32,000 nucleotides of DNA from an uncultured Eubacteriales bacterium (GCA_900317375.1 ONGJ01000025.1:1-32000); one strand, 5' to 3'; positions 2,857 to 27,586 are shown, counted from the stretch's first letter. Program-made: numbers and translations. Notes: generated by a model from the sequence alone, not told the origin.

Positions 2857-2865
2857 GGTGCCGGA

Positions 2866-4410
2866 ATGAGTAACAACGTGAATCTGCAGAAACCTGCACA
2901 GAAGCACGAAGGCGGGAATACGCCGCTGCTCATCGCAGAGCATATTGACAAGCAGTTCGGCATCACCCATGCCGTCAACGACGTCTCTCTTACCATCGAC
3001 GCCGGGGAGGTCCGCGGTCTGATCGGCGAAAACGGCTCCGGCAAGAGCACCTTTTCCCAGATGCTCTGCGGCATCTATTCCATCGGCGGCGGCAGCTTTA
3101 CTCTCGACGGTCAGCCACTGCATCCGAAGAATCAGGTTGAGGCGAACAACGCCGGTGTTGCCATCATCGTGCAGGAGATGGGTACGCTCTCCGGCCTCAC
3201 GGTGGCGGAGAACATCTTTTTCGGTCACGAAGAGCCCTTCATGCATCTCGGCGTCAAGAACACCGGGGCCATGAACCGCGAGGCCCAGCGCCTGCTGAAC
3301 GAATACGGCTTCGGGCGTATCAAGGCCTCGGACATGATCGACCGCTACAATTTTGAGGACCGCAAGCTGGTCGAGATCGTCAAGGCCACCTATATGAAGC
3401 CGAAAATCCTGGTGGTTGACGAGACGACCACCGCGCTTTCCCAGAACGGCCGTCAGGAGCTCTATAAAATCGTCGACGCGATCCGCGCCGACGGCAGAAC
3501 CGTCATCTTCATCAGCCACGACCTGAACGAGGTCATGGAGCATACGGACAGCATTTCCGTCCTGCGTGACGGCGAGTTCGTCGGAACCTTCCGCACAGCC
3601 GATACCTCCGAGGACCAGCTCAAGCGCTACATGGTCGGCCGTGAGATCGGCTCTGCCTACTACCGTGCCGACTACGGCGAGAAGGTCTCGGACGAGGTGG
3701 TCCTTACCGTGGACAATGTCAGCGTCCCCGGCGAAATCAGCAACATCAGCTTCCAGCTCCATCGCGGGGAAATTCTCGGCTTCGGCGGACTTTCCGAGTG
3801 CGGCATGCACGAGGTCGGCAAGGCGATTTTTGCCGCCTCCTGGGACCGCACGGGAAGCGTGAAGCTGGCCGACGGCACCGCCATCAACGACATCCCCACC
3901 GCCATCCGCAAGTCCATCGCCTATACGTCAAAGAACCGTGACAACGAATCCGTCATCGTCAACGAGTCCATCCGCAACAACATCGTTCTCCCGTCCATTG
4001 AGGACCTCGCCAACCACGGAATTCTGAACAACCGGAAGCTCACGGCTTTTGCTGACAAGTATGCAAAGGACATGCAGACAAAGATGACCGGCGTCAATCA
4101 GTTTGTCTCGGACCTCTCCGGCGGCAACAAGCAGAAGGTCGTCCTGGCCCGCTGGCTCGGCAAGGGAAGCGACATTCTGGTGCTCGACTCGCCGACCCGC
4201 GGCATCGACATCGGTGTGAAGCAGGCGATCTACGCCCTGATGGATGACATGCGAAAGCAGGGGAAATCCATCATCATGATTTCGGAAGAAATCCCTGAGC
4301 TCCTTGGTATGGCCGACCGCATCATCGTCATGAAGGACGGCACCATCAGCGGAGAATTCATGCGCGATCCGGCTCTGAGCGAAGAAGACCTGATCGCAAA
4401 AATGGTATAA
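2866..4410 (+). CDS. sugar ABC transporter ATP-binding protein with two fused ABC domains
   Basis: Walker [10 protein letters not shown] in domain 1, LSGGNKQKV signature in domain 2, 514 aa. This is the typical RbsA/MglA/AraG architecture. Confidence 0.9.
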
Positions 4411-4417
4411 GGAGGCG

Positions 4418-5389
4418 ATGAAGATGCAGAAAAACAACAATCAGGAACCCTCCAAGTTCCGCGCTTTTCTCAGCAGCGACACCTTTAAGGGCCTGCTGCC
4501 CTTCATCGGCTTTGTTGTCATCGTTGTGGTCATGAATATTCTGACCGAGGGAAAGATTCTGACGCCCAAACGCATCCGCCTGCTGCTTTCCCAGGTCTAT
4601 TATCCGATGATCGTTGCCACCGGTGTCTTCTTTATCATGACGCTCGGTTCCATTGACTTTACCGAGGGCTCGACCCTTGGCCTTGCTTCCATCGTCATCA
4701 GCAAGCTGTCCTTTATCAGCATTCCCCTGGCGATTCTCGGCGGTGTCCTCACCGGTGCTGCCATCGGTGCCATCAACGGTTTCTTCCACGTGAAGTTCAA
4801 GCTCCAGAGCTTTATCACCACGATCTGCACCATGTTTCTTTTCCGCGGTGTCTGTGCCTATCTGACGACGGAGAGCGCCGTGCCGGCCAGCACCGAGATC
4901 AAGGCGCTGGATCTGAACTGGCTGAAGATCACCATTACCGTCGCCGTACTGCTTATCGCCTGGTTCCTCTTCCGCTTTACCCGTATCGGCAACGACGTGA
5001 AGGCCATCGGCTCCGGCGAGACTGCAGCCCGCTTCTCCGGTGTAAAGACGGACCGCGTGAAGTTCCTCGTCTTCGTTGCGGCAGGTGCCCTTACCGGCAT
5101 TGCAGCTTTCGTTAACGTCATCAAGGTCGGTTCCATTACCGCCACCGCAGGAAGTCAGCTGGAAACCCAGATTCTCATCGCGCTGGTCCTCGGCGGCCTG
5201 CCCATCACCGGCGGCGCCAAGGTGCGTTTCTCGAACATCATCGTCGGCACCCTGATGTACACCGTCCTCAACAACGGCCTTGTCATGCTGGGCTATGAAA
5301 CCCAGACCCAGCAGCTCATCAAGGGCATCATCTTCCTGGTGTTCGTCGCGCTGACCATCGACCGCAAGGCGCTGAAGGTCATCAAATAA
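4418..5389 (+). CDS. sugar ABC transporter permease (second membrane component)
   Basis: Hydrophobic, about 320 aa, RbsC-family-like. AAGGAGG at 4409-4415 favours ATG 4424 as the real start over 4418. Confidence 0.8.
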   Translation: MKMQKNNNQEPSKFRAFLSSDTFKGLLPFIGFVVIVVVMNILTEGKILTPKRIRLLLSQVYYPMIVATGVFFIMTLGSIDFTEGSTLGLASIVISKLSFISIPLAILGGVLTGAAIGAINGFFHVKFKLQSFITTICTMFLFRGVCAYLTTESAVPASTEIKALDLNWLKITITVAVLLIAWFLFRFTRIGNDVKAIGSGETAARFSGVKTDRVKFLVFVAAGALTGIAAFVNVIKVGSITATAGSQLETQILIALVLGGLPITGGAKVRFSNIIVGTLMYTVLNNGLVMLGYETQTQQLIKGIIFLVFVALTIDRKALKVIK

Positions 5390-5403
5390 CAGGGAGGAAC
5401 CAT

Positions 5404-6870
5404 ATGAAAAACTATGAATTCTGGTTTGTGGTAGGCAGTCAGTTTCTCTACGGGCCCGAGGTTCTGGAGACCGTAGAGGCCCGCGCCCGGGAGATGGCGC
5501 AGGAGCTGAGCCTGTCCCTGCCGTTTCCGCTTGTCTACAAGGTGACCGCCAAGACGAGCGATGAAATCACCCGTGTCGTGAAAGAGGCCAATTACCGCGA
5601 GGAGTGCGCCGGGATCATCACCTGGTGCCACACCTTCTCCCCGTCCAAAATGTGGCTCACCGGCCTTGATCTGCTGCAGAAGCCCTGGTGTCATCTGGCC
5701 ACGCAGTATAATCAGGCGATTCCGAACGAAGAGATCGACATGGACTTCATGAATCTGAACCAGGCCGCCCACGGCGACCGGGAACACGGATTCATCGGCG
5801 CCCGTCTGCGCAAGCCGCGCAAGATCATCGCAGGCTTCTGGACGGACGCTTCGGTCCGCAGCCGCCTCGGCGCCTGGATGCGCACGGCGGTCGGCGTCGC
5901 CGTCTCCCGCGAGATGCGCGTCATGCGCTTCGGCGACAACATGCGCGACGTGGCCGTCACCGAAGGCGACAAGATCGAGGCTCAGAAAAAGCTTGGCTGG
6001 CAGGTCAACACCTGGGCGGTCGGCGATCTCGTCAAAGAGATGAACGCCGTCACCGAGGCCGAAATTGATGCGCTTGTAAAAGAGTATGAGGCATCCTACG
6101 ACATCGCAACAGACAATACGGCTGCCATCCGCTATCAGGCCAAAGAAGAAATTGCCATCAAACGCATGATGGACCACGAGGGCTGCAAAGCCTTTGCCAA
6201 CACCTTCCAGGATCTCTACGGCATGGAGCAGCTCCCCGGCCTGGCCAGCCAGCACCTGATGGCGCTGGGCTACGGCTACGGCGGCGAGGGGGACTGGAAG
6301 GTCTCTGCCATGACAGCCATTCTGAAAGCGATGGGAGAAGGCGGAAACGGGGCCTCCGGTTTTATGGAGGATTATACCTACCACCTGATCGAGGGCCAGG
6401 AGTATTCCCTCGGCGCGCATATGCTCGAGGTCTGCCCGAGTCTTGCAGCCGACAAACCCCGGATCGAAACCCATCATCTGGGCATCGGCATGAACGAAAA
6501 AGACCCGGCACGTCTGGTCTTTGAGGGCAAGGCCGGCCCCGCCATCGTCGTAAGTCTCATTGACATGGGCGGCCGCCTGCGCCTGATCGTGCAGGATATC
6601 GAATGCGTAAAGCCCATTCTCCCGATGCCGAATCTTCCGGTTGCCCGCGTCATGTGGCGTGCCATGCCGGACCTGACCACCGGTGTGGAATGCTGGATCA
6701 CGGCAGGCGGCGCACACCATACCGTGCTGAGCTATGATGTCAGCGCGGAGATGATGCGCGACTGGGCGCGGATCATGGACATCGAGTTTGTCCATATCTC
6801 AAAAGATACGCTTCCCGAAAAGCTCGAGGAAGAGCTCCTGGTCAAGGATCTCATCTGGAAGCTCCGCTGA
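5404..6870 (+). CDS. araA: L-arabinose isomerase
   Basis: 488 aa. N-terminus MKNYEFWFVVGSQFLYGPEVLETV and overall length are characteristic of AraA. GGAGGA RBS upstream. Confidence 0.9.
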   Translation: MKNYEFWFVVGSQFLYGPEVLETVEARAREMAQELSLSLPFPLVYKVTAKTSDEITRVVKEANYREECAGIITWCHTFSPSKMWLTGLDLLQKPWCHLATQYNQAIPNEEIDMDFMNLNQAAHGDREHGFIGARLRKPRKIIAGFWTDASVRSRLGAWMRTAVGVAVSREMRVMRFGDNMRDVAVTEGDKIEAQKKLGWQVNTWAVGDLVKEMNAVTEAEIDALVKEYEASYDIATDNTAAIRYQAKEEIAIKRMMDHEGCKAFANTFQDLYGMEQLPGLASQHLMALGYGYGGEGDWKVSAMTAILKAMGEGGNGASGFMEDYTYHLIEGQEYSLGAHMLEVCPSLAADKPRIETHHLGIGMNEKDPARLVFEGKAGPAIVVSLIDMGGRLRLIVQDIECVKPILPMPNLPVARVMWRAMPDLTTGVECWITAGGAHHTVLSYDVSAEMMRDWARIMDIEFVHISKDTLPEKLEEELLVKDLIWKLR

Positions 6871-7037: not shown

Positions 7038-7113
7038 CCGGGTGTAGCGCAGATGGTAGCGCGCTTGAATGGGGTTCAAGAGGCCGCTGGTTCAAATCCA
7101 GTCACTCGGACCA
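7038..7113 (+). tRNA. tRNA-Pro (anticodon GGG)
   Basis: Hand-folded cloverleaf. Acceptor CCGGGTG/CACTCGG (one G-U pair), D stem GCGC/GCGC, anticodon stem CTTGA/TCAAG with loop ATGGGGT. T arm GCTGG-TTCAAAT-CCAGT, discriminator A, encoded CCA. Confidence 0.85.
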
Positions 7114-7155
7114 AAACGCTGAAATCGTTGGTGATTTCAGCGTTTTCTTTTTATT
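7069..7155 (+). repeat. attL: 87-bp direct repeat (tRNA-Pro anticodon loop to 3' end plus terminator)
   Basis: Identical over 87 nt to 19387-19473 by manual alignment. Confidence 0.85.
7116..7152 (+). terminator. rho-independent terminator of tRNA-Pro (inside the att repeat)
   Basis: ACGCTGAAATC-GTTGGT-GATTTCAGCGT followed by TTTCTTTTT. It is duplicated at 19434-19470. Confidence 0.6.
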
Positions 7156-7171: not shown

Positions 7172-7369
7172 AACGCTTGATTTTTGAAGAATGAAGGAGG
7201 AATCAAGCGTGCTGGGAAAAAACCGCATTCAAAAGAATCAAGCGTGTCGTTGGAAGAGTCAAATAATCCCATCTGTTCAGAAAAATCAATGTTTTATTAA
7301 AAAAACCTTTGAGGCAGAAGGGAGGATTCAAGCGTGTCAAATAGAAAACGGATTTTGGTCAATTCAAGC
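7172..7369 (+). promoter_or_regulatory. five copies of the motif AWTCAAGCGYG between attL and the integrase 5' end (candidate arm-type or regulatory sites)
   Basis: ACGCTTGATT (7172, inverted), AATCAAGCGTG (about 7200 and 7235), ATTCAAGCGTG (about 7325, containing the integrase GTG start), ATTCAAGCGCG (about 7359). The first two form a 10-bp hairpin around an AAGGAGG. Confidence 0.4.
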
Positions 7370-8293
7370 GCGTCTGTAAAGGAACAATTCAAGAGTTTCC
7401 TTATAGCAAAGAAGGCAAAAGGGCTTGCTGATAAGACTTTGGCTACTTACGAGCAACATCTTTCAGCGATTGGAAAACATCTTGATTTAATGACAAGCGT
7501 CGAAAATCTAAATACGAACGATTTGGAATCTATGGTTAGTTCCATGCGAGACGATGGGCTTTCTCCTAACACTATCAAAAGTTACACAAACACACTCAAA
7601 TCTTTTTTCTCCTGGTGCAATGAAGAAGGTATCACAAATTTAACAATCACTCGCTATAAAGCAGAAGAGACTGTAAAAGAAACATATACTGACAGCGAAT
7701 TGGAGATTTTGCTGAAAAAGCCAAATCTCCGCAAATGCAAGTTCTCCGAATATCGTAATTGGGTCATTATCTGCCTTTTGGTGAATAACGGTTGTCGCGC
7801 TGCATCTGTCCGTAATATCAAAATAAAGGACTTGGACCTTGAGGGACGAATTATTTATCTTCGGCACACTAAGAATAAGAAAACACAGATTATTCCTCTA
7901 TGTGATACTCTATGCGTAACATTAAAGGAATATCTGCGTATCCGAAACGGTGAAGCTGACGATTATCTGTTCCCAAATGAGTTTGGAGAGCAGCTTTCAG
8001 AAAATGGCCTGCGCTGCACCATAGCCAAGTATAACAAGAAGCGCGGCGTTCAGAAAACTAGTCTCCATATGTTCAGGCACACCTTTGCTAGAAAGTATCT
8101 TGTGGATTGTGGAGGAAATGCTTTTACGCTTCAACATTTACTTGGCCATTCAACCCTTGATATGACAAAGCATTACTGTGCCATTTTTGACGCTGATATC
8201 TCCAAGAATTTTGAAAACTACTCCCCTCTGGCACAAATACAGAATAATAAAAGTAAGATTTCTATGAAATGCAAAAAAACGAGAACAGTATGA
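7334..8293 (+). CDS. tyrosine-type site-specific integrase (phage integrase family)
   Basis: GTG start 8 nt after GGAGGA. SAM-like N-terminal domain. C-terminal catalytic motifs ...LHMFRHTFARKYL...LLGHSTLDMTKHY. TGA stop. Confidence 0.9.
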   Translation: MSNRKRILVNSSASVKEQFKSFLIAKKAKGLADKTLATYEQHLSAIGKHLDLMTSVENLNTNDLESMVSSMRDDGLSPNTIKSYTNTLKSFFSWCNEEGITNLTITRYKAEETVKETYTDSELEILLKKPNLRKCKFSEYRNWVIICLLVNNGCRAASVRNIKIKDLDLEGRIIYLRHTKNKKTQIIPLCDTLCVTLKEYLRIRNGEADDYLFPNEFGEQLSENGLRCTIAKYNKKRGVQKTSLHMFRHTFARKYLVDCGGNAFTLQHLLGHSTLDMTKHYCAIFDADISKNFENYSPLAQIQNNKSKISMKCKKTRTV

Positions 8294-8375
8294 AACATCT
8301 TTCAGCATCTTTTGAATATCTTTGAACATAACAGAACATCTTTTAGCATCTTTCCATCATTTTTGAACATCTCTA
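8294..8375 (+). repeat. array of about 8 degenerate 10-11-bp repeats (GAACATCTTT / AGCATCTTTT), cluster 1; includes the 23-bp direct repeat 8294-8316
   Basis: Units start at roughly 8294, 8304, 8314, 8324, 8334, 8345, 8356 and 8365. AACATCTTTCAGCATCTTTTGAA recurs at 12521-12543. Confidence 0.55.
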
Positions 8376-9019
8376 AAGAAAACAAAAACCGCTCTGAACA
8401 TTTCCTGAAGCATTTTTAAATCCAGGAGACAGTCAGAGCGGTTGTTTATGAGGCAATGAGATGAAATGTGTATTTTCAAAACTCTTGAGCGGAAGTGAAA
8501 ACAGCGAAGCAGCCAGACTTTCAGCGCGACGACAGGTTATTTTTCTTCCTCGTCTTCGTTATCGTTTTGTATTCAATGGGACAAAAGGAAATCTCAGGAA
8601 ATAGGAATAAAAGTGAAGTCGTGGTCGTATGCGAAATCATCAGCAGTGCTTCCTGCCTTTCCAAATATAACAAGTTCCTGTATATCACCAAAAGCATTAC
8701 TATCAATCGTGGTTGTTTCATTTGGAATGTAGATATACCTGAGATTGGGACAGTTAGCAAATGCAAAAGGTCCGACATACTCTGTCTGCTCCGAAAGCTT
8801 CACATAGCGAAATGCTCCACCAGAAAAAGCGTCTTCACTTAATATCTTCAAGGATGCTGGCAAAAAAATGTCAGGAGTTGGAGTAATCAATGTGACACCT
8901 TTGTCAAATTCAATAATTGTAGTAGAACTAGTAATGATGGTTCCAGGTTCTTTGTAGCGAACAATTGACCCCGAAATTTCTGGCTGTGTGTTATGGACAA
9001 GTGCAAATAGCTTTGGGCA

Positions 9020-9800
9020 ATTACTAATGTCCAAGGTTTCAATATTATTAGAAAAACAGTATAACCGTCGCAGGAAGGTACAAAAACTGACATCTAGGCT
9101 TGTCAATTGATTTTCAACACAGGATAAAGAAGTCAGTGCACTATTATTGTTAATATTTAAAACTGTCAACTGATTATAATCACAGACTAATGAAGTTAGT
9201 GCAGTGTTGTTGCTGACATCTAGGCTTGTCAGTTGATTTTCCATACAATCCAGAGAGTTCAGAACAGTGTTATTGCTGACATCTAGGCTTGTCAGCTGAT
9301 TGTTATAACAATTCAGAGAAGTTAGTGCAGTGTTATTGCTGACATTCAGGCTTGTCAGTGGATTTTGTTATTGCTGACATTCAGGCTTGTCAGTGGATTT
9401 GAAGAACAATTAAGAGCCGTCAGTGCGGTGTTATTGCTGACATCTAAGCTTGTAAGTTGATTTCCAAAACAATCCAAGGAAGTCAGCACAGTATTGTTCC
9501 CGACATCTAGGTTTGTAAGTTGGTTGCTAGAACAATCCAAGGAAGTCAGCGCAGTATTATTCCTGACATCTAATCTTGTCAGTTGGTTATTAGGACAATA
9601 CAGAGAAATCAAAGCAGTGTTGTTGCTTACATCTAATCTTGTCAGCTGGTTCCTTGTACAATACAGGGCAGTCAAAGCAGTATTGTTGCTTACGTCTAAT
9701 CTTGTCAGTTGATTACCATAGCAATATAGAGAGGTCAGTGCAGTATTGTTGCTTACATCTAATCTTGTCAGCTGATTATTTCCACAAGATAAATTAGTTA
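9020..9800 (-). repeat. 66-bp in-frame tandem repeats encoding the LRR units
   Basis: Repeated ...GTTATTGCTGACATCTAGGCTTGTCAG... units are visible on the + strand. The period matches the 22-aa LRR. Confidence 0.8.
9331..9400. repeat. perfect 35-bp tandem duplication (9331-9365 = 9366-9400) causing the LRR frameshift
   Basis: TGTTATTGCTGACATTCAGGCTTGTCAGTGGATTT occurs twice back to back. 35 nt is not a multiple of 3, and a TGA follows immediately in the shifted frame. Confidence 0.9.
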
Positions 9801-10104
9801 ATGATGTAAAAAACTCGATTCCTTTAAGAGACGATAATCCACTTTTATTTAGGGAAATACTCCTGCTTCTAGAGATTTCAGTTTCACTCAGTTTTCCATT
9901 ACCGTCTCTGTCACAGTTCACTGACACATAATTACGGAAAACACTATCAGGGAAATTTGTCTCATTGATGTCAACATCATCAGCGAAAGCAGTGGGCGTA
10001 AGAATGAAAATGAATACCAGGCAAAACGACAATAGAACAAAAGGCAATGATTTCTTCATAATAAGACACCTCTGTTTTTGTTCTTAAAAATATCGATTTT
10101 TCAT

Positions 10105-10844: not shown

Positions 10845-11495
10845 CTACGCTGCAATCACTAGTTGTTCGTTGCAATCCAGGCAGGCGATGTTCACAGCCT
10901 TTGTAGCGCGAACGCTCATACCGCAGCAAGGGCAGATGTATTTCCTTGTGCTGGAAGGTTTACGGCCTGCTGTCCCTGTAAAGGTCCCTGCGTGCGTTCC
11001 ACTGACACCAACGGCAATGCTCATCAAATCGTTTCTGTTCAGCCTGATTTCTGTCAGATTGTTCTCTACGCAGAATTCCAAGAGAGAATCAGAAGGAGAA
11101 GTAATGGACCAGCCATAGGAGCTGTGATGCTCTACGACCAAATCACAGGCTTCGGCAGCTGCCTTGAAGTTTTTATTGTGGTAGGTGTTCCCCCTGCTGC
11201 AATCCTTCACGCCGTTCTTATCGTTCCAGTAATGAACCATTTCGTGAAGAAGGGTAGCTACCACGCATTCAATAGGTCTGGACAGCGTGCCTGCGCCGAT
11301 GTTGATTTCCCGCATTCCCTGCTCGCCGTCAACGCTCCAAGCATCAAACAGGGTGTAATGGCCGTAAGCTTTGGGCGTGCTCTGAATCGTGATGACAGGC
11401 CTTGAAAGTGTATTTTCAAAGTATCTGGCATTCAGCAGGTCAAAGATGGTGTTCAGATAGGCAGCTGCTCTGTTGTAGGTGGTAAGCTGTTTCAT
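10845..11495 (-). CDS. SprT-like zinc-metalloprotease domain protein with C-terminal Cys4 zinc ribbon
   Basis: HEMVH motif in an SprT-like context (TLLHEMVHYWN). C-terminal CPCCG...CLDC. It ends in a TAG that behaves as a genuine stop. Confidence 0.7.
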   Translation of the reverse strand: MKQLTTYNRAAAYLNTIFDLLNARYFENTLSRPVITIQSTPKAYGHYTLFDAWSVDGEQGMREINIGAGTLSRPIECVVATLLHEMVHYWNDKNGVKDCSRGNTYHNKNFKAAAEACDLVVEHHSSYGWSITSPSDSLLEFCVENNLTEIRLNRNDLMSIAVGVSGTHAGTFTGTAGRKPSSTRKYICPCCGMSVRATKAVNIACLDCNEQLVIAA

Positions 11496-12469: not shown

Positions 12470-12547
12470 AACACGATTGAACATCCCTGAACGTGTCAGC
12501 GTGTGAACTGAACGTCTTTTAACATCTTTCAGCATCTTTTGAACATC
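12470..12547 (+). repeat. GAACAT/GAACGT decamer array, cluster 2; includes the direct repeat 12521-12543
   Basis: CAGAACACG, TTGAACATCC, CTGAACGTG, CTGAACGTCTTTT, then AACATCTTTCAGCATCTTTTGAACATC. Confidence 0.5.
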
Positions 12548-12555
12548 ACGGAAAG

Positions 12556-12597
12556 AAAAAGAAAAAACGGAGAATAACGATAAACGCTATCCTCCGT
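12556..12597 (-). terminator. strand-specific rho-independent terminator ending the minus-strand small-gene operon
   Basis: Minus strand reads ACGGAGGATAGCG-TTTAT-CGTTATTCTCCGT followed by TTTTTTCTTTTTCTTT. The two G-U pairs exist only in the minus-strand RNA. Confidence 0.6.
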
Positions 12598-12602
12598 CAG
12601 GG

Positions 12603-12791
12603 TTACCATTCCCATTCTTCTATCTCATCCCAGTCAATGCTTCTGTCGTTCAAATCAATATAATGCCAGCCTAGCCATTCATCAAAGAAATAATTCATCA
12701 TCTGACTGGTGACTTCCTTCATCACGTTATAAAGGAATTCTTCAATCCAGGACTATTCTCGTTTCTTTTTCTTTTTCTCTTCGTCTGTCAT
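12603..12791 (-). CDS. hypothetical small acidic protein, 62 codons with one in-frame TAG (codon 13)
   Basis: AAGAGG lies 7 nt before ATG 12791. Translation MTDEEKKKKKRE[TAG]SWIEEFLYNVMKEVTSQMMNYFFDEWLGWHYIDLNDRSIDWDEIEEWEW, TAA stop. TAG at 12753-12755. Confidence 0.4.
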
Positions 12792-12802
12792 TGCTTAGCC
12801 TC

Positions 12803-12988
12803 TTACTGGTTATAATGATTGCGCAGATGCCTTTCCAGTATCTCTCTGTCTTTTGGACTCTCTTCAGCCCAAAGAATCTGATAGGGTTTGACATCTTCCT
12901 GAAGATGAACGAAATGGTCATAGTAGAGAACTGGTCCCTCTGTCAGCTAATCCAGAACGCTGCTCTTATGTTTCTATATTGGATTCAT
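12803..12988 (-). CDS. hypothetical small protein, 61 codons with two in-frame TAG
   Basis: The AGGTGA RBS overlaps the upstream TGA stop. Translation MNPI[TAG]KHKSSVLD[TAG]LTEGPVLYYDHFVHLQEDVKPYQILWAEESPKDREILERHLRNHYNQ, TAA stop. TAGs at 12974-12976 and 12947-12949. No alternative start after the TAGs. Confidence 0.35.
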
Positions 12989-12997
12989 ATTCTTTTT

Positions 12998-13357
12998 TCA
13001 CCTACTTCGTCTTTTTTTTATTTTTTCGCAATACGCTCTATAGTTGTCTTGCTAGCTCAAGAAACGCAAATTGCTGGCTTTGTTATTGCTGACATCACCG
13101 TCAATGTGGTCCACTGTGTTCTTGTGCTATGGATCATCGTTATCACAGAACGCCGCAGCCACTAAACGACTGACAAGAAAATGTCTGCTTACTCCGTTAT
13201 GGGACAAACAGACACGGTAATATCCTTTATTATTAGGGAACGCTGTCAGAATCTTTTCTTTCTTGTGTTTCAGGGATTTGATTCTGCCAAGGGAACTAAC
13301 ATAGTATTTTTCATAACCGTCTATCGGTTTCCAGATTTCTTTTTCTATTGGAATCAT
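12998..13357 (-). CDS. NUMOD4 + HNH (HNH_3-type) homing-endonuclease-like protein, frame intact but with two in-frame TAG
   Basis: MIPIEKEIWKPIDGYEKYYVSSLGRIKS...GYYRVCLSHNGVSRHFLVSRLVAAAFCDNDDP[TAG]HKNTVDHIDGDVSNNKASNLRFLS[TAG]QDNYRAYCEKIKKRRSR, TGA stop. The ORF track reports only the first 76 aa. TAGs at 13127-13129 and 13052-13054. Confidence 0.7.
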
Positions 13358-14055: not shown

Positions 14056-14100
14056 GATCCTCAAGGTCTTCTATTTAATGGAAAACCTTGAGGATCTTTT
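14056..14100 (+). terminator. hairpin terminator between convergent genes
   Basis: GATCCTCAAGGT-N17-ACCTTGAGGATC followed by TTTT. Confidence 0.5.
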
Positions 14101-14509
14101 ATTCTGCACTTGCCAGAATTTCTTCCAGCGTTACTGTTAGCGCATGAGAGTTATAATCATACTTGCGCCAGTTAGATTCCTTTGGAATCTGTGTGTTCAG
14201 TGCTGGTAGATACTGCCTGATATAACGCCCTTCAGCTTCTCCTATTTCTTCTACTACATCGGAAAGCTTGGACGAAGTCGCATAGCAAACCACATCAAAC
14301 TGAACAGCGTGCCCCTTCTGTTTTGCTTCTGCCAGGATCTGATACTTGTGACTTTTCGGCTGTCGGAAAGCAAAGTAGTGTTCTGCCAGCCTCCACAGCA
14401 TATCTTTGCTCTTGCCTATGTATACAATTATCCCATCGATTGTAATCTTATATATACCAGCGTGCTGGAAGCGCGCTGCAAACCCTCTGCGCTATAGCAT
14501 CTTGTACAT
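14099..14509 (-). CDS. GIY-YIG nuclease domain protein with an in-frame TAG at codon 6
   Basis: MYKML[TAG]RRGFAARFQHAGIYKITIDGIIVYIGKSKDMLWRLAEH...EAEGRYIRQYLPALNTQ. GIY-N9-YIG, the conserved R, and E...N are all present. The ORF-track ATG (14401) lies after the YIG motif. TAG at 14492-14494. TAA stop. Confidence 0.7.
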
Positions 14510-14522
14510 ATTTTCTACGTAA

Positions 14523-15266
14523 TTAGCCAATTCTCTCTTCCTTTCCAGAAATATAACGTGTCAGTTCATACACTTCCGCAAGGCTGCCATTCAGATTCCA
14601 GGCTGTGAAGTGGAAAGTCTTGCAGGAGTAATAACAGCAATGGTCCCTGTCCCATAGAAAATTAACCACATTTTTCCATGCTTCACTTCTGGCCTCATCA
14701 TAGGAAAGCTTTCTGCTCCCCTTCATAATCTGCCAAGTGATTTCTTCTATTAGCGCTGAACGCTCTTTGAAATAGGTTTGCGCTTCTTCCTCTGTAACGA
14801 GCTGGCGCTTCTTGAATCCTGCTTCGTCAATGTAGGTTTTCCAGTAACTACCTTCGCTGCCCTTGCACATAATGCCCTGATCTATGAGTTTCTTGCACCA
14901 TCTGCTTAAAGTACGGCTTGTATAGAATCTGCCTGAGAACTTCCAATATTCCTCTTCGCGAACCTTCCATGGCATACAGTCAAAACCAGGAACATCATTA
15001 AACGCAGTGACGAAGCAGGCGAACGAGTACATATCAACCTGAATATCAACTTGGAACTGTCGGATCAGGATTTCCTGTAATCTTTCTTCTGGTAGATCAG
15101 GAACATGGGTAATTGCTACACCGTTGCGCATCCAGTCATATCCATAGCCCCACTTCGTCAGAACAGACTCTACATTTCTTTTAAAGTGTTTTACATCAGC
15201 TAAGCTCACGCTTGTGATTTCAGCAATTTCCTTGCGGCTATAGAACCGCATTTCTAACTATTTCAT
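14523..15266 (-). CDS. hypothetical protein with HTH-like segments (possible DNA-binding or replication function); possible in-frame TAG at codon 3
   Basis: 242-aa ORF from ATG 15251 has no RBS. GAAAGG lies 8 nt before ATG 15266, giving MK[TAG]LEMRFYSRKEIAEITSVSLADVKHFKRN... TAG at 15258-15260. TAA stop. Confidence 0.6.
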
Positions 15267-16167: not shown

Positions 16168-16446
16168 TTATATAGCGTACAGGATTTCATATAACCTGCG
16201 TACTTCGGCATCCATTCTATCGTGGTATTCTGCTTCATACAGAAGGAACAGAATATAGTGGTAGATAATCTGTTCCCTGTAATCTGGCTGTGAAGGGTTG
16301 TACTTCTCTATGGGATAGTGGTTTTTTATCATCACTTGGCGCATCGCGCAGATTTCCTGATTGGTGATTGCGCATGCAAGACAATGAAAATTCTATTTGT
16401 CCCAAGACAAGATTTTTTGTTTACTTGATATCAGCAGAGAATTCAT
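16168..16446 (-). CDS. hypothetical protein, 92 codons with an in-frame TAG at codon 18
   Basis: Strong RBS AAGGGGGTGA before ATG 16446. Translation MNSLLISSKQKILSWDK[TAG]NFHCLACAITNQEICAMRQVMIKNHYPIEKYNPSQPDYREQIIYHYILFLLYEAEYHDRMDAEVRRLYEILYAI, TAA stop. TAG at 16393-16395. Alternative reading: a 17-aa leader plus an internal start at ATG 16344. Confidence 0.45.
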
Positions 16447-16579: not shown

Positions 16580-16608
16580 ATTATAACAAATTTTTTATAA
16601 AAAGTCAA
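16580..16608 (-). promoter_or_regulatory. consensus promoter heading the TAG-containing gene block
   Basis: Minus strand reads TTGACT, 17 nt spacer, TATAAT, followed by a leader of about 125 nt before ATG 16446. Confidence 0.6.
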
Positions 16609-16713: not shown

Positions 16714-17199
16714 TTATGCAGTCTTTTTGTTTGCATTTTCCAGATAATCTGAAAAGCTAATCACATCAGGGAGCTTTTCAGTATCCAGATAGAACAGAGG
16801 CTCTTCTCTGAACTTAGGAAACTGAGCCATAAACCACTGAGCAACAGGCGCATAGGGTGAAAGGCATATTGCTTCGGCCTTTTCACGCAGTTTGTGATAC
16901 TCATCCAGATACTTCTGGCTGTTATCAAGCGCATTCATAAATCTCTCCATGCGCTCATAGGAAAGGTTTTTGGTAGGATAGTAGGAGGTTCTCTTACCAT
17001 CCTGCCCCTTCCCCTTGTAGGAAGTGGGTGAAGTGCGTGTGCGATTCACAATTTCCAGATTGGGAAAATCATGCAGGAACTGACGTACAAGTTTATATTC
17101 AGCAGATCCAGGGTTGTTGGCTGCATCAGCAAAAGCAGCAGTCAGAGTGAGAGTCTGGTGGGCCAGGTCCAGCTTATAGCCCTTCATTTTTGTAGCCAT
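16714..17199 (-). CDS. hypothetical protein (161 aa), weak N-terminal paralog of the upstream gene
   Basis: MATKMKGYKLDLAHQTLTLTAAFADAANN... GGGGG RBS before ATG 17199 (the track starts at 17214). TAA stop. Confidence 0.6.
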   Translation of the reverse strand: MATKMKGYKLDLAHQTLTLTAAFADAANNPGSAEYKLVRQFLHDFPNLEIVNRTRTSPTSYKGKGQDGKRTSYYPTKNLSYERMERFMNALDNSQKYLDEYHKLREKAEAICLSPYAPVAQWFMAQFPKFREEPLFYLDTEKLPDVISFSDYLENANKKTA

Positions 17200-17227
17200 T
17201 TTAAATACCCCCATTTATGTTTTTTGC

Positions 17228-17731
17228 TTAAAGATTCACAACAGGCTTGAGTTCATTCTCTTCGGCTTCGCCGATGACAGTATTATTATCTGTCGTAGGC
17301 TTAGCTTTAGCACAAGTTGCGCTGTTGAGCATCTGCTTATAGCGATAATCATCAACACAACTCTTGGCTTCAGCATAGTTGAAGCTTTTGTAAGCATCAA
17401 AAAGCACGCGCTTGACAAGTGGGTATTTGCTCTCACGCATCTTCCCAGCATAATCGATTACTTCATTCACTGTTTCCAGTGTGATGTAATCTTTGACTGC
17501 CGTAAGGTAGTCCACGATAAAGGGAATGTCCATCCCCTTATAGGTCTGCTTGGGCTTAGCAGGCTTCTCAGGCTGCTTGATTTCGATACCATAGGTAGGG
17601 TGCTTCTCCATCAAAGCGATGAGTTCGTCATAGACAGGGCCATAACCCTTGCTAGCTTTGTCAAAGCTGTTCTGGGTTCCGACGATGGTCTTGTTGGCAA
17701 AGTTAAGGGTAAAGCGTGCATTCTTAGACAT
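17228..17731 (-). CDS. hypothetical protein (167 aa)
   Basis: MSKNARFTLNFANKTIVGTQNSFDKASKGYG... GGAG lies 8 nt before ATG 17731 (the track starts at 17743). TAA stop. Confidence 0.6.
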   Translation of the reverse strand: MSKNARFTLNFANKTIVGTQNSFDKASKGYGPVYDELIALMEKHPTYGIEIKQPEKPAKPKQTYKGMDIPFIVDYLTAVKDYITLETVNEVIDYAGKMRESKYPLVKRVLFDAYKSFNYAEAKSCVDDYRYKQMLNSATCAKAKPTTDNNTVIGEAEENELKPVVNL

Positions 17732-17910
17732 ATTAGTCTCCATTCTCTGTTTTTCTGAGTTTATCAGCTCTCATTTTTTTATTCTTGGAAGGGGTTTTCT
17801 TTTCTTTGTTTCCCCCTCCTCTTTACAATTATATTTTACCAGATTTGAAAAATATTACAATATGTTCAGGCGTTTCAGCAGTACATAAGCGGCCTTCTGA
17901 CTTTATTCTA

Positions 17911-17955: not shown

Positions 17956-18990
17956 TTACTGATAATGCGCTTCTATTCTTTTGATGTAGTCTTTGAATCT
18001 CCCTGCTGTTTCTGGTGGGTCTACAATGACTATTTTTTCACCTAGACCACATACCCAACCATAGAAGTTTTCGCTTTCCACGATGAATGTTTTGATGCTG
18101 AAATGCTTGTCATCTATTGGAGTGTATACTGTGTCAGGTCCTTTGGGAAAGCGTTCCAGCATTGCATCCAATAGGGAGTTTTCAAATTGAAGAGTAATAC
18201 GTCCTGCTTTGCCACCGATGAACATTCCAAAAGTCTGTTTCGCATAATCGCTAATCCCCAACCGTTTGAACTTTTCTTCCCCTTCTCTTGGCTCATCCGT
18301 AATCTTTACATCATCCATCCTGTCTATTCTGTATGCCCTGATTTGGTGGTAGGTATCATCATAGCCTATCAGGTAGTGGTTTCCATCTGAAAGGACAACA
18401 TTGAAAGGGCTGACAACATACCGTTTTCCTTTCCTGCGGTTTTCCGTTTGAGTGATATTCACTGGACTATGGCGAGTATAGAGAAAAGATATTTTCTGAT
18501 TATTTCTTATAGCGAGTTTTATTCTACGAAGGTATTTTAACATCTTCCTTTCCGTGTATTTCGGTCGTTCTGCTACGATGTACTCGCTTTTCAGGGTGTC
18601 TGCTTGATACTTGCTACACAGTTTTTTAAGTTTTTCAATAAGTTCTTCTGCTTCTGGTCGTGATATGAAATTAGCGGAGGCGACACATTCTGCTATCGTT
18701 TCCAAGTCTTCAAATGGCAGAAAGCGAGTGCCCAAATAGATAGGCTTGCCTTTTCCCCCTTGGACATCCAACACAGCGTCAAACGCTGCGTCTCTTCCTC
18801 CACGCAAAAGGTCAATGTCTCTGCGGATAGAATGATTTTCTGCTTCAATTCCTTTGCTATTCAGGTATTGCTCTACATCCTTTAACAGAACGCCGTGAAG
18901 CATATTGCCTTTTTCATCGGCGTCAGTTTCTCGCATAAGATAATCGGCGATGTAAAAGATTTTCAGTTTCTGACGGTCGCTCTTTGGCAT
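17956..18990 (-). CDS. WYL-domain transcriptional regulator (wHTH-WYL-C-terminal extension, YafY/BrxR-like architecture)
   Basis: 344 aa. N-terminal HTH-like region. Central ...YVVSPFNVVLSDGNHYLIGYDDTYHQIRAYRIDRM... typical of WYL domains. GGGGGA RBS. TAA stop. Confidence 0.8.
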   Translation of the reverse strand: MPKSDRQKLKIFYIADYLMRETDADEKGNMLHGVLLKDVEQYLNSKGIEAENHSIRRDIDLLRGGRDAAFDAVLDVQGGKGKPIYLGTRFLPFEDLETIAECVASANFISRPEAEELIEKLKKLCSKYQADTLKSEYIVAERPKYTERKMLKYLRRIKLAIRNNQKISFLYTRHSPVNITQTENRRKGKRYVVSPFNVVLSDGNHYLIGYDDTYHQIRAYRIDRMDDVKITDEPREGEEKFKRLGISDYAKQTFGMFIGGKAGRITLQFENSLLDAMLERFPKGPDTVYTPIDDKHFSIKTFIVESENFYGWVCGLGEKIVIVDPPETAGRFKDYIKRIEAHYQ

Positions 18991-19386: not shown

Positions 19387-19473
19387 ATGGGGTTCAAGAG
19401 GCCGCTGGTTCAAATCCAGTCACTCGGACCAAAACGCTGAAATCGTTGGTGATTTCAGCGTTTTCTTTTTATT
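19387..19473 (+). repeat. attR: 87-bp direct repeat (partial tRNA-Pro 3' half plus terminator)
   Basis: Identical to 7069-7155. It is preceded (about 19355-19386) by a degenerate tRNA 5'-half-like sequence that cannot form an acceptor stem. Confidence 0.85.
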
Positions 19474-19600
19474 CTCTTCTGAAAAGCAGCACGCTTGAAT
19501 TTTCTACTTGAAGGGAGATTCAAGCGTGCTGTTTTTTTGTAAAGTTATGCTTGATTTTATTATACTTTTCGGTATAATAAAACGGAAGGATGTGATTTGC

Positions 19601-20998
19601 TTGGAGAGATTTATCGACCGCGAGCAGGAAATGGAGACTCTGCAGAGCGAATATGAGCGTAAAGGGAGTTCCCTCGTGATCCTTTACGGGCGTCGGCGCG
19701 CCGGAAAAACCACACTGATCTCGGAGTTTATCAAGGACAAGAACGCCCTTTTCTTCCTGGCCAGCGAGGAATCTGAATCGCAGAACCGAAACGCCTTTAA
19801 GGAGAAGGCTGCGGACTTCATCGGCAGCTCCCTGCTGCATGAGGCCAGCGTCTCCACCTGGGACGCGATCTTCAAAGCAATCATGGAGCACAGCTTTGAA
19901 ACGAAACCCATCATCGTGATCGACGAGTTTCAGTATATCGGCAAGTCCAACCCGGCTTTTCCCTCAGTGTTCCAGCGCATATGGGAAGAGCAGCTCAGGA
20001 ACCGCGCAGTTATGGTAATTCTCTGCGGCTCGCTGGTCTCCATGATGGAGTCACAGACCCTGGCCTACAACAGCCCGCTCTATGGGCGGCGCACGGCGCA
20101 GATCCGGCTGGGGCAGATCCCGTTCCGCTATTACGGCAAGTTCTTCCCCGACCGCAGCCGGAAAGAGCTCATTGAGATGTACGCCATCACCGGCGGCGTC
20201 CCCAAATACGTGGAGATATTCTCCGAGAGCAAGGACATCTACCGCGCCATCGCGCGCAACGTCCTCAATCGCTCCGGCTATCTATACGATGAGCCGCACT
20301 TCCTGCTGCAGCAGGAAGTCAGCGAGATCGGCAGCTACTTCTCCGTCATCAGGGCCATTGCCGCAGGCAATCACAAGCTGGCGGCCATTTCCTCCGCCCT
20401 GGAGGTCAAGGCCACCAGTCTGACCAAATATCTGAAAACGCTGATTGATCTGGATATTCTGGAGCGCGAGATACCCATCACCGAGGAGAACCCGGAGAAG
20501 AGCAAGCGCGGCCTTTACAGGATCAAGGACAATTATATCCGCTTCTGGTTTGCCTTCGTCTATCCCAACATGAGCTTTATCGAGAGCGGCAACAGTCAGA
20601 TCGTTCTGGACAAGATCCGCAAGGGCCTGGTCACCAGTCATATCGCCTTCGTCTATGAGGATGTGTGCCGGGAAAAAATGTGGGATCTGAATGCAGACGA
20701 CGCCTGGCCTTTCCACTTCTCCAGGATCGGACGCTATTGGGACGCCGCTACCGAGATCGACATCACTGCCCTCGACCCGGAGGGACACAACCTCATTCTC
20801 GGCGAGTGCAGGTATTGGCAGGAGCCGGTGGGTGCGAACATCCTGCGCGAGCTGGAGCAGAAAGCCGAACACGTCTCCTGGAACCAGGATCATCGACAGA
20901 CCTGGTTTGTACTGTTCAGTATGGGTGGTTTTACTGATGAACTGAAGCAGCTTGCTGAAGGCCGCGCCGACTTACTCCTGGTGGACGACCGCAAGTAA
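19601..20998 (+). CDS. AAA-type ATPase with C-terminal DUF234-like domain
   Basis: Walker A GRRRAGKTT, Walker B IIVIDEFQY. A TTG start at 19601, 10 nt after GGAAGGA, gives MERFIDREQEMETL. The ORF-track start at 19508 lies in AT-rich non-coding DNA. Confidence 0.75.
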   Translation: MERFIDREQEMETLQSEYERKGSSLVILYGRRRAGKTTLISEFIKDKNALFFLASEESESQNRNAFKEKAADFIGSSLLHEASVSTWDAIFKAIMEHSFETKPIIVIDEFQYIGKSNPAFPSVFQRIWEEQLRNRAVMVILCGSLVSMMESQTLAYNSPLYGRRTAQIRLGQIPFRYYGKFFPDRSRKELIEMYAITGGVPKYVEIFSESKDIYRAIARNVLNRSGYLYDEPHFLLQQEVSEIGSYFSVIRAIAAGNHKLAAISSALEVKATSLTKYLKTLIDLDILEREIPITEENPEKSKRGLYRIKDNYIRFWFAFVYPNMSFIESGNSQIVLDKIRKGLVTSHIAFVYEDVCREKMWDLNADDAWPFHFSRIGRYWDAATEIDITALDPEGHNLILGECRYWQEPVGANILRELEQKAEHVSWNQDHRQTWFVLFSMGGFTDELKQLAEGRADLLLVDDRK

Positions 20999-21040
20999 GC
21001 CGGCACGCGAACGCATTGCAGGCGTACATAGTCCAGCCCA

Positions 21041-21997
21041 TCATTCTTCCAAATCCGGAACCGTCCCAAGCAGCTCTCGAACGATAGGAAGCGATTCCTC
21101 CGGATGCAATAATTCCTGCCGATTTTCGGCGGATGAGCGTGTGCTTTGCAGCAAAGAGGGATGCTGCCTGCGATATTCTTTGGGCGTGCAGCCGTATTTT
21201 TCGCGAAAAGCCTTCGTCATGTACCGCAGATCCGAAAAGCCGCTTTCAATCGCAATATCCAGAATGGTTTTACTCGTCGTATTCAGAAGCTCCAGGGCAT
21301 GTTCAAAGCGCTTTTCCTTCAGGTACTCCTGGAAACTGATTCCCAGGATATTCTTGAACAGATGAGAAACATAAGGCATCGTCAGCCCGTACTGCCGCGC
21401 GATGTCCTCCAGCAGCAGCTTCTGCTGGAAATGTCGGTCAATCTCGTCGAGAATGGATACCATGCGGTCAGTCTGCCTTCGCATCATTTCATAATCATTC
21501 TGCGTCAGCACTTGCCTGGGAAGATTCCGGTCAAGCAGGAGAAGGAGTCTGGACAGGAGGTAGAAGCAGGTCATTGCGTCCTCTCCCCCGGCCGAAAGGT
21601 AATGGACTGCCAGATCCAGAACCGCTTCCCGCAGCTCCCGGGCCTTCTCGCTGCCCTTTGGGAAAAACGGCTCCAGCGGCGGTTTGACCTGGAAGCAATG
21701 CATGGATGCGTCCGGAATAAACGGCTCCAGAAATCTGGGTGAAATCTGAACGGCAAGTACGAGCGTTCCTTCCCCGACGGAAGTGAACTCATGCGGTTTC
21801 ATGGAATTCACCAGATAAAACTCGTCTTTTTCAAGCCGGTATCCCTGGCCGGCATGGCGGAGAGTCAGGCGTCCTTCCAGAATCAGGCCAAGCTCCAGCT
21901 CGCGGTGAAGGTGGGGACAGCGGGACTGAAGCCGAACAAGAAAAAGGTTGAGGCAGGGATAGCTGCCGGTCGGAATCATCTCATATTCATGCGGCAT
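21041..21997 (-). CDS. AraC-family transcriptional regulator (cupin sensor plus AraC HTH)
   Basis: C-terminal ...LLLEDIARQYGLTMPYVSHLFKNILGISFQEYLKEKRFEHALELL...GFSDLRYMTKAFREKYGCTPKEYRR. Divergent from the sugar cluster. Confidence 0.85.
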   Translation of the reverse strand: MPHEYEMIPTGSYPCLNLFLVRLQSRCPHLHRELELGLILEGRLTLRHAGQGYRLEKDEFYLVNSMKPHEFTSVGEGTLVLAVQISPRFLEPFIPDASMHCFQVKPPLEPFFPKGSEKARELREAVLDLAVHYLSAGGEDAMTCFYLLSRLLLLLDRNLPRQVLTQNDYEMMRRQTDRMVSILDEIDRHFQQKLLLEDIARQYGLTMPYVSHLFKNILGISFQEYLKEKRFEHALELLNTTSKTILDIAIESGFSDLRYMTKAFREKYGCTPKEYRRQHPSLLQSTRSSAENRQELLHPEESLPIVRELLGTVPDLEE

Positions 21998-22188
21998 ACA
22001 GAAACGCCTCCTTCCCGGCCATCTTATACCGCAGATACGCGGCCGTCAAGAAGGATCGCAAACTTGTGCTGTAATTTGCCGCAAATTCATACGAGACAGC
22101 GGGAGATCGGCATGTTATCATGAACGCATAAAGCAGAACACTGCATCTATCGATATTTTCTATACTTTTTATCTGAGGAGGATGATTC

Positions 22189-23223
22189 ATGTCTCGCTTC
22201 AAGTTTTCTGTCGGCCCCTGGAATGTTCATACCGGTGCGGATTCCTATGGCCCCGACACCCGTCAGGCCATTGATCTCGAGAGCAAATTCGCCATGTTCA
22301 AAAAGCTCGGTTTCGATGCCGTGCAGTTTCATGATGACGACGCGGTTCCCAACATCAACGACTACACCGAGGAAGAGATCAGGGCCAAAGCCCGGGAGGT
22401 GAAGGCGCTGCTCGACAAGTATGACCTGAAGGCCGAATTCGTCGCGCCGCGTCTTTGGATGGATCCTCACACAAGAGACGGCGGCTTTACCAGCACCAGC
22501 GCCGAGGACCGGGAGTATGCCATGTGGCGCGCCTACCGCTCCATCGACATCGCCAATGAGCTTGGCTGCGACCTGATCGTGCTGTGGCTTGCCCGCGAGG
22601 GAACCTCGTGCGCGGAGAGCAAGAGCGCCGTCACCGCCACAAAGCAGCTTGTCGAGGCCATCAACTGCATGCTTCGCTATGACGGCAAAATCCGCGTCTG
22701 CATCGAGCCCAAGCCCAATGAGCCGGTTGACCGTTCCTTCTGCGGCACCATCGGCCATGTGATGGGTGTTTCCGCCGCGACCATCGACCCGAAGCGTGTC
22801 GGCGCCAACATGGAATCCGCCCACGCCACCCTGGCCGGGCTGGATCCCGCCAATGAGATGGGCTTCGCACTGGCCTTCAACAAGCTCTTTACCGTGCACC
22901 TGAACGACCAGAACGGCATCCGCTTCGACCAGGACAAGTCCTTCGGCGTGGAGAACCTGCGCCAGGCCTTCAATCAGGTCAAGATCCTCATGGAGAACAA
23001 ATACTACGAGACCGGCAACTATGTCGGCCTCGATGTCAAGGCCATGCGTACCACCTCCGACGAGGACAGCTACGCCCATCTGGTCACTTCGCTCGAGCTC
23101 TTCAAGGCCATGGAGAAGAAGGTCGAGAAGTATGACTACGCTTATGCCAACGAGCTGATCGCCCAGCGCAAATATGAGCAGCTTGAACTCTACGTCAACA
23201 GGCTGATCATGGGCATCGAATAA
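22189..23223 (+). CDS. xylose-isomerase-family TIM-barrel sugar isomerase (class I XylA-like, short form)
   Basis: FSVGPWNV...FHDDDAVP, IEPKPNEP and HLNDQNGIRFDQDKSFG blocks resemble actinobacterial-type xylose isomerase motifs. 344 aa. Confidence 0.75.
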   Translation: MSRFKFSVGPWNVHTGADSYGPDTRQAIDLESKFAMFKKLGFDAVQFHDDDAVPNINDYTEEEIRAKAREVKALLDKYDLKAEFVAPRLWMDPHTRDGGFTSTSAEDREYAMWRAYRSIDIANELGCDLIVLWLAREGTSCAESKSAVTATKQLVEAINCMLRYDGKIRVCIEPKPNEPVDRSFCGTIGHVMGVSAATIDPKRVGANMESAHATLAGLDPANEMGFALAFNKLFTVHLNDQNGIRFDQDKSFGVENLRQAFNQVKILMENKYYETGNYVGLDVKAMRTTSDEDSYAHLVTSLELFKAMEKKVEKYDYAYANELIAQRKYEQLELYVNRLIMGIE

Positions 23224-23282
23224 TACCAAAGCTGAATCGGGGCTGCCGGGAGCGACAGCCCTGACTGTTTAAGGAGAACAGG

Positions 23283-24392: not shown

Positions 24393-24407
24393 CTCGGAGG
24401 ATTCATC

Positions 24408-25253: not shown

Positions 25254-25279
25254 AAAGCGGCTGCTCGCAGGGTGCGGAC

Positions 25280-25322
25280 GAAAAAAGCAAGGACTGCATC
25301 CAATACAAATGCAGTCCTTGCT
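25280..25322 (-). terminator. rho-independent terminator for minus-strand transcription (after the micropeptide ORFs); also closes the aldolase operon
   Basis: 14-bp stem AGCAAGGACTGCAT / ATGCAGTCCTTGCT. The T-run is present on the minus strand only. Confidence 0.55.
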
Positions 25323-25337
25323 ACGTATTATGATCGG

Positions 25338-25385
25338 TCATTTCCCTTCGCGGTGAGAGAAGCTTTCATAGAACTCTTTCAGCAT
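25338..25385 (-). CDS. candidate micropeptide gene, copy 1 (MLKEFYESFSHREGK)
   Basis: It differs from the 3' 15 codons of copy 2 by six synonymous and zero non-synonymous changes. A TTG two codons upstream is an alternative start. Confidence 0.35.
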   Translation of the reverse strand: MLKEFYESFSHREGK

Positions 25386-25435
25386 TTTCAACGCCTTCTT
25401 TCTGTTCTGTTATGGTTGTCCGGCAGCCGTCCCGG

Positions 25436-27535: not shown

Positions 27536-27541
27536 AACAGG

Positions 27542-27574: not shown

Positions 27575-27586
27575 ATCTGCGCATCA

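Follow-up and report, generated by a model that had tools for sequence, protein, structure and literature searches.

In-frame amber codons in an HNH endonuclease gene of small tRNA-associated islands in Clostridia: a proposed translational gate

Recoding of the amber stop codon TAG is known in mobile elements of gut Clostridia, and the locus considered here raises the question of what such codons might be doing inside the gene of a nuclease: do they disable it, or do they belong to it, and by what means could they then be read? The gene lies at 12998..13357, on the minus strand, of a 32,000-nucleotide stretch of DNA from an uncultured Eubacteriales bacterium (the whole stretch is referred to here as the window). 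It combines NUMOD4 and HNH_3 endonuclease domains in 119 codons, with an ATG start, a genuine TGA stop and two in-frame TAGs. The initial annotation had given its peptide without naming a strand, and translation of 13357..12998 on the minus strand matches that peptide exactly, as MIPIEKEIWKPIDGYEKYYVSSLGRIKS...DNDDP[TAG]HKNTVDHIDGDVSNNKASNLRFLS[TAG]QDNYRAYCEKIKKRRSR[TGA]. The first TAG is codon 77 (13127..13129, minus strand; ...DNDDP[TAG]HKNT...) and the second is codon 102 (13052..13054, minus strand; ...RFLS[TAG]QDN...). The frame is preserved through both and the gene ends at a TGA (12998-13000) within AGGTGA, about 10 nt ahead of the ATG of the next ORF (12988), just as had been described.

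The domain content of the product depends on whether the first TAG is passed. NUMOD4 (Pfam PF07463) occupies residues 7-52, scoring 60 bits where the cut-off is 23.4 (E=2.4e-16), and the beta-beta-alpha-metal motif of HNH_3 (Pfam PF13392) is recognised in the whole read-through product at 26.9 bits against a cut-off of 24.8. The standard-code ORF is a 76-aa protein in which Pfam finds NUMOD4 only, in agreement with the earlier statement that such an ORF lacks the nuclease domain. The segment after the first TAG, for which the lack of any significant HNH_3 match beyond 13127 had been foreseen as a possible outcome, scores significantly even when searched alone (E=7.8e-7, 29.1 bits, cut-off 24.8). 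The closest solved structure is that of I-HmuI (PDB 1U3E, E=3.6e-13), an HNH homing/nicking endonuclease of Bacillus phage SPO1, with which the island protein can be aligned over about 100 N-terminal residues, the catalytic Asp-His pair and Asn being the same in both. By alignment, D83/H84 are the equivalents of I-HmuI D74/H75 and N105 that of N96, the metal-ligand Asn, while the codon-102 TAG aligns with Gln93. It had been claimed that the catalytic block lies entirely between the two TAGs; in the I-HmuI alignment this is right for Asp83 and His84 and wrong for the metal-ligand Asn105, which is found downstream of the second TAG. Because Asn105 follows the second TAG, an active enzyme would require that both TAGs be read. 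The alignment stops at I-HmuI residue 99, and the island proteins, of 119-135 aa, have no C-terminal DNA-binding module of the I-HmuI type (I-HmuI residues 100-174). Also unlike I-HmuI, the island gene is not intronic, is amber-interrupted, and occupies a fixed position in its island beside a small overlapping partner ORF. By family and by catalytic residues the gene is an I-HmuI-like endonuclease, whose activity is predicted from its sequence.

The copy in the window is altered at its C-terminal end. A run of A8 (13012..13019, minus strand), expanded by 2 nt with respect to the A6 of the closest relative, L039, changes the reading frame over the last ~14 residues. The ancestral tail, TK[TAG]VKKEYESNIET*, is still present out of frame at 12966..13010 (minus strand), with a third TAG at 13002-13004; in L039 it is in frame (...KTK[TAG]VKKEYESNTET), whereas the window reads RRSR instead and stops earlier. 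The expansion is common to the window and to a 37-kb ENA contig 99.995% identical to it, and the frameshift spares the catalytic core. The change may be tolerated or may represent early decay, and since both the HNH tail and one cargo gene are frameshifted, the window copy could be starting to decay. These two frameshifts, together with the fact that standard-code gene callers give only a 76-aa fragment, are what might be expected of a pseudogene, that is, of an HNH gene inactivated by nonsense mutations, perhaps selected through toxicity, and now decaying. The wider family bears directly on this possibility, and the setting of the gene defines that family.

The window gene is part of an integrated element. 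The chromosome in the window has 55-68% GC and carries sugar transport, araA and cobalamin genes, and the element has ~40% GC. Two perfect 87-bp direct repeats, attL (7069..7155) and attR (19387..19473), both given on the plus strand, bound it; the left one takes in the 3' half of tRNA-Pro(GGG) and the sequence that follows it, and they therefore delimit a 12,318-bp integrated island. Most of its conserved genes are TAG-free: the tyrosine integrase (7334..8293, plus strand), a regulator with WYL and WCX domains (17956..18990, minus strand), two conserved genes of 171 aa and 166 aa without assigned function (16714..17743, minus strand), and the module formed by a SprT-like protein and a second, short tyrosine recombinase. 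A conserved 242-aa protein encoded upstream of the nucleases (14523..15251, minus strand) is TAG-free here and has 5 TAGs in 22 loci of its family. No capsid, tail, terminase or lysis families were detected in the island with Pfam, PHROGs and NCBIfam, and it has no recognisable packaging or known defence genes. With Pfam, PHROGs, NCBIfam and PADLOC, the core island proteins returned only integrases, WYL, SprT-like and a generic homing-endonuclease model, and an AlphaFold model of the 166-aa protein (pLDDT 79) found no PDB match by Foldseek (best E=1).

Some further observations on the island could be made at this point. Its leucine-rich-repeat cargo gene (8594-10059, minus strand) is split into two overlapping frames with the junction at 9365/9366. 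The gene is intact (476 aa) in the 99.995% identical ENA contig L042, the difference of ~35 nt falls within 63-nt tandem repeats, and the split reflects either a true change of repeat unit or an error in the assembly. The SprT-like gene has TAG as its own stop (10845-10847), to which an amber suppressor would add 53 codons. A motif, AACATCTTT(C/T)AGCATCTTT, is repeated close to the integrase end (8279-8388), at 12506-12564 just past the terminator of the TAG-bearing block described below, and inside the WYL gene (18528-18546). Similar repeats adjoin the integrase in other islands, 'MLKDVQ...' being found in spurious ORFs of L032 and L118, and the motif may correspond to recombinase arm sites or iterons.

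When one genome of each bacterial species was scanned, 23 loci were recovered, most of them in Oscillospiraceae, Ruminococcus and other Clostridia and including two isolates, at which HNH homologues 54-67% identical reside in islands syntenic with that of the window. Ruminococcus sp. JL13D9 (NZ_CP162392) and Ruminococcaceae bacterium P7 (FMUA01) are among the carriers, and ERZ27280476 is one of the metagenomes with the island. Their gene order could be written as (WYL)-171aa-166aa-(242aa)-(GIY-YIG)-HNH-<HTH-117aa-(SprT-recombinase)-...-integrase. Some islands are only 8 kb in length and lie between duplicated tRNA-Thr or tRNA-Val genes; across the family, which consists of Clostridial islands of 8-12 kb inserted at tRNA genes, the HNH gene belongs to the core. 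Together with the window, 80 loci from a metagenome scan and 4 further ones, the 23 loci provided a set of 108 HNH genes with DNA, which standard-code annotation presents as fragments of 76-79 aa or misses. Protein identity among the loci spans 54-97%, and they are not copies of one recent sequence.

At every one of the 23 genome loci the HNH gene contains TAG, at varying positions, with the frame kept and with neither TAA nor TGA. Over the whole set, 107 of the 108 genes carry one to three in-frame TAGs (a single TAG in 69 genes, two in 25 and three in 13), and 1 gene has none. The TAGs make up 36 patterns over 24 different columns, the earliest at codon 3 and the last in the C-terminal tail; in 104 of 108 genes a TAG stands upstream of the catalytic Asn. 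The aligned HNH segments of 107 loci comprise 11,884 codons, with 128 TAGs in frame, 0 TAA and 0 TGA, and no frameshift was found in the HNH core across these loci. The residues D83, H84, N92, N96 and N105 are retained in 106-107 of 108 genes, and when pairs of genes were compared solely over the stretch beyond the first TAG in each of the two, the median dN/dS was 0.16. The reading of the TAGs as non-disabling is borne out by these data, and the varied nonsense and indel mutations that might have been met in homologues did not appear, TAG being the sole interruption. Ordinary decay is excluded because only TAG interrupts the genes, the catalytic residues are kept and dN/dS is 0.16; with TAG columns moreover shared by clades whose proteins are 30-40% divergent, a pseudogene is scarcely credible as an explanation, in spite of the frameshifted tail of the window copy.

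The TAGs are also largely confined to this gene. Ten other conserved island families (the integrase, the second recombinase, the SprT-like, 117-aa, HTH, 242-aa, 74-aa, 166-aa and 171-aa proteins, and the WYL regulator) have 9 TAGs in 43,754 codons (Fisher p~3e-100 against HNH), with 0 in 3,623 integrase codons and 0 in 10,107 WYL-regulator codons. L032 and L118, two minimal islands, have no clear TAG-bearing gene besides HNH, and the HNH homologues of ordinary phage contigs have 0 TAG in 2,019 codons. The TAGs are real and gene-specific, nearly all members of the family have them, and the sequence around them is under purifying selection. Genes without any TAG are rarer than a random distribution would give: against ~24 predicted by a Poisson model, 1 of 108 was seen, the loci being phylogenetically non-independent. 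When the genes were clustered at 80% identity, 1 of 30 clusters was TAG-free (P~1.5e-4). A number of TAG-free genes so far below chance suggests, with counts that are phylogenetically non-independent, that selection keeps at least one TAG in the gene.

In the window, TAG-bearing genes are found only within one minus-strand block, which runs from a promoter-like site (TTGACT-17-TATAAT with TG; 16580..16608, minus strand) to a terminator-like hairpin with a T-run (12566..12598, minus strand), both recognised by consensus scan only. The first gene of the block is a 92-aa ORF (16168..16446, minus strand) with a TAG at codon 18 (16393-16395). A GIY-YIG-type nuclease of 143 aa with a TTG start (14099..14530, minus strand) has a TAG at codon 13 (14492-14494), and its standard-code ORF (14401..14099) is devoid of the GIY motif; homologues in L021 and L049 score above the Pfam GIY-YIG cut-off and have 2-3 TAGs each. 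Beginning ~10 nt past the HNH stop, a 61-aa ORF (12803..12988, minus strand), the conserved partner of the HNH gene, has TAGs at codons 5 and 14, with TAG/CAG swaps in comparison with L039 and L041. It precedes a very acidic 62-aa ORF (12603..12791, minus strand) with a TAG at codon 13 that is kept in L039, L041 and L043. The succession of the HNH gene, the 61-aa ORF and the acidic, Trp/Glu-rich 62-aa ORF recalls nuclease/immunity pairs or DNA-mimic proteins, and no family match was found for the small ORFs at 12603-12988. Near-identical pairs of intergenic repeats, of 38 nt (15344-15381/15761-15798) and 18 nt (15818-15835/16146-16163), separate small genes of the block, and each of these repeats overlaps a promoter-like TTGAAA...TATAGT/AATAAT site.

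A comparison with known recoded phages is instructive. 'Topaz' phages are TAG-recoded (code 15) temperate phages of Oscillospiraceae, 22 +/- 3 kb in size, which integrate at tRNA-Thr and have TAG-free integrases (Borges et al., 10.1101/2021.08.26.457843). Like them, the islands have in-frame TAG in conserved genes, low GC, a standard-code Clostridial host, integration by a tRNA gene, a TAG-free integrase and TAG-free regulators, and interchange of TAG and CAG. From this likeness it could be argued that TAG is merely a synonymous Gln codon left over from recoded-phage ancestry or exchange, with no gating involved, and the presence of TAGs in several genes of one block of the window, as well as the fact that TAG makes up ~40% of TAG plus Gln codons in the HNH gene, fits such an origin. 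Unlike Topaz phages, however, the islands are of only 8-12 kb, have no recognisable structural or lysis genes, and have no suppressor tRNA detected in ~60 loci, so that the TAG-bearing genes would be dead in them and yet are under purifying selection. Topaz recoding extends across most of the genome, whereas in the islands no more than a few genes, mostly for nucleases, are affected, and in the minimal ones just the HNH gene. The presence of at least one TAG in 107 of 108 HNH genes, where ~24 TAG-free genes would be expected, points to selection and looks like an obligatory gate rather than a habit of codon usage. A neutral leftover of this kind is accordingly regarded as distinctly improbable.

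As to the residue inserted at TAG, glutamine is best supported, and this is inferred from codon pairings in DNA. Among close relatives of the window (85-97% nucleotide identity), sites with TAG pair with TAG in 13 cases, with CAG in 7 and with CTG in 1. The codon-77 column, which is TAG in 12 of 108 family members, is also TAG in L039, L041 and L043, while codon 102 is CAG in L041 and L043. Family-wide, the nearest non-TAG codon at TAG columns is most commonly CAG, and AAG/AAA and GAG are seen as well. The initial annotation had proposed to look at the residues occupying the TAG columns in homologues, and the answer differs with the level examined. Many seemingly intact protein-database homologues have Gln exactly at these columns, but as evidence for decoding this was rejected as circular: the DNA of P0001, P0003 and P0063 has TAG there, and these proteins could not be translated from their own DNA under the standard code. 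The database residues are not independent because the depositing pipeline must have used code 15; the DNA-level comparison stands, with CAG the commonest counterpart and AAG/AAA and GAG beside it. Those Lys and Glu codons in near relatives are also the ground on which TAG might be taken for another residue (pyrrolysine, Lys, Glu, Tyr or Trp) inserted by a host-encoded system. Such a system is highly improbable: CAG is the commonest counterpart overall and accounts for 7 of 8 non-TAG codons among the closest relatives, no pyl-related domain occurs among the annotated genes of the window, and the hosts are diverse. In the neighbourhoods of the islands TAG is a normal stop that ends 43 of 250 long ORFs (~17%), from which it follows that the hosts use TAG as an ordinary stop.

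If the hosts stop at TAG, the means of reading it has to be sought elsewhere. ARAGORN found no suppressor tRNA in the window and in ~60 loci scanned whole, and neither did Rfam at E<=5 on the island; in the window, no tRNA other than tRNA-Pro appeared even at a lax Rfam threshold. In TAG-recoded phages themselves, a suppressor tRNA is detected in only ~40% (10.1101/2021.08.26.457843). GenBank phages gave no match to the island by megablast or to two core proteins by tblastn, and no relatives of the 166-aa, 242-aa and WYL proteins turned up in scans of IMG/VR. The relatives of the integrase in IMG/VR (L048 and L049) are standard-code contigs, and in L049 a TAG-bearing GIY-YIG gene adjoins the integrase. 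This gene (L049:11017-11433; IMG/VR UViG_3300024268_002441) has three in-frame TAGs and lies at the end of a 21-kb viral contig; because the large structural genes of the contig are TAG-free, this may be an island integrated in tandem with a standard-code prophage. Ten IMG/VR contigs that share the tRNA-Pro 3' end were considered and set aside as neither island-like nor recoded. Since the islands encode no suppressor tRNA, the decoding agent would have to come in trans. The searches made found no helper or invading phage and no other decoding agent; for this reason, we infer rather than observe a TAG-recoded phage as the source of the suppressor.

The arrangement proposed as probable, from the pattern of TAGs in the family, is that of a functional nuclease in which amber codons act as a translational gate, opened by a suppressor that is supplied in trans, most likely by a TAG-recoded phage. 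The HNH reading frame would carry amber codons deliberately. Under the standard code, translation would end at the first TAG and leave a catalytically dead fragment, so that the nuclease would be kept off, and full-length enzyme would depend on decoding of TAG, most likely as Gln (genetic code 15). The likeliest source of the suppressor would be a TAG-recoded phage infecting the same cell or induced in it, and the amber codons would in this way tie production of the nuclease to the code switch of the phage. In the window, the same gate would also cover the GIY-YIG nuclease and the three small ORFs of the block.

Signals in the transcript itself could in principle take the place of a suppressor. 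No conserved nucleotide context was found around 34 TAGs, at which the +4 base is G in 10, C in 8, A in 8 and T in 8 with no shared flank. The lack of a common context at these 34 TAGs and the variation of TAG positions over 24 columns speak against programmed read-through signalled in cis. A truncated NUMOD4-only isoform was rejected as a real product, given TAG positions that span codon 3 to the C-terminal tail. A different possibility is natural leakiness, whereby the amber codon would cut the output of a toxic nuclease to ~0.1-1% through near-cognate read-through, largely by tRNA-Gln, and this would be enough for a nicking or homing enzyme. Leakiness would explain why no island scanned has a suppressor tRNA, and near-cognate insertion of Gln would tolerate TAG/CAG swaps. 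Exactly one TAG in 69 of 108 genes is also in its favour, as is, weakly, the Shine-Dalgarno sequence of the window copy, which in our own reading directly touches the ATG. Nevertheless, in 38 of 108 genes a ribosome would have to pass two or three TAGs, and the multiplied read-through would be negligible there, there is no conserved read-through context, and TGA, the leakiest stop in bacteria, is never used (0/128). Leakiness is on balance rather unlikely, and the gate opened by a suppressor in trans is retained as the preferred reading.

What purpose such a gate would serve could only be suggested tentatively. The HNH nuclease locked by amber codons, accompanied in some islands by a GIY-YIG nuclease and companion genes, might be opened by the suppressor tRNA of a recoding phage, either in a satellite that times its mobilisation or in defence, an arrangement that could be called 'suppressor-tRNA sensing'. 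As a satellite, the island would mobilise itself when a code-15 helper reaches its late phase; as a defence, it would possess an abortive-infection or defence nuclease aimed specifically at recoded phages. Like phage satellites of the PICI type, the islands are small and have a tyrosine integrase, perfect att repeats at a tRNA gene, a regulator and small genes, and they would share with them a dependence on a function supplied in trans. In contrast to PICI, genes for a primase/replicase, a terminase small subunit or capsid remodelling could not be recognised in them, and the proposed need is for the suppressor tRNA of the helper. For recoded phages, Borges et al. proposed that recoding restrains dangerous late functions and could sense the suppressor tRNAs of other phages, and in Agate phages an intron homing endonuclease is preferentially TGA-recoded (10.1101/2021.08.26.457843).

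In the literature searched, no satellite dependent on the suppressor tRNA of a helper is described, and nothing specific was found on recoded satellites, suppressor-sensing defence or amber-interrupted HNH genes. New with respect to that literature are the small island without structural genes or suppressor, the restriction of recoding to a nuclease gene and a few of its neighbours, and the near-obligatory amber codon. Stop-codon recoding of gut phages is known and a regulatory role for it is still hypothetical; this HNH family offers a compact, testable case, with a nuclease that almost never lacks an amber codon in an island without its own means of reading TAG. If the suppressor of a recoded phage does open the gate, this would be the first example found of a mobile element or defence system that senses a change of genetic code, and it would allow code switching in Clostridia to be reported simply. 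There is also a consequence for annotation, in that some pipelines silently apply code 15 and thereby create misleading 'Gln' residues in databases.

Two minor observations concern the host genes of the window. The stops of 14 Pfam-supported host genes (776-6870 and 19508-31798) are TGA in 8, TAA in 6 and TAG in none, a sample too small for any conclusion. The host gene that adjoins attR (19508-20998) encodes an ATPase_2/DUF234 protein, with a PADLOC match to the candidate defence family PDC-S27 (E=1.7e-48).
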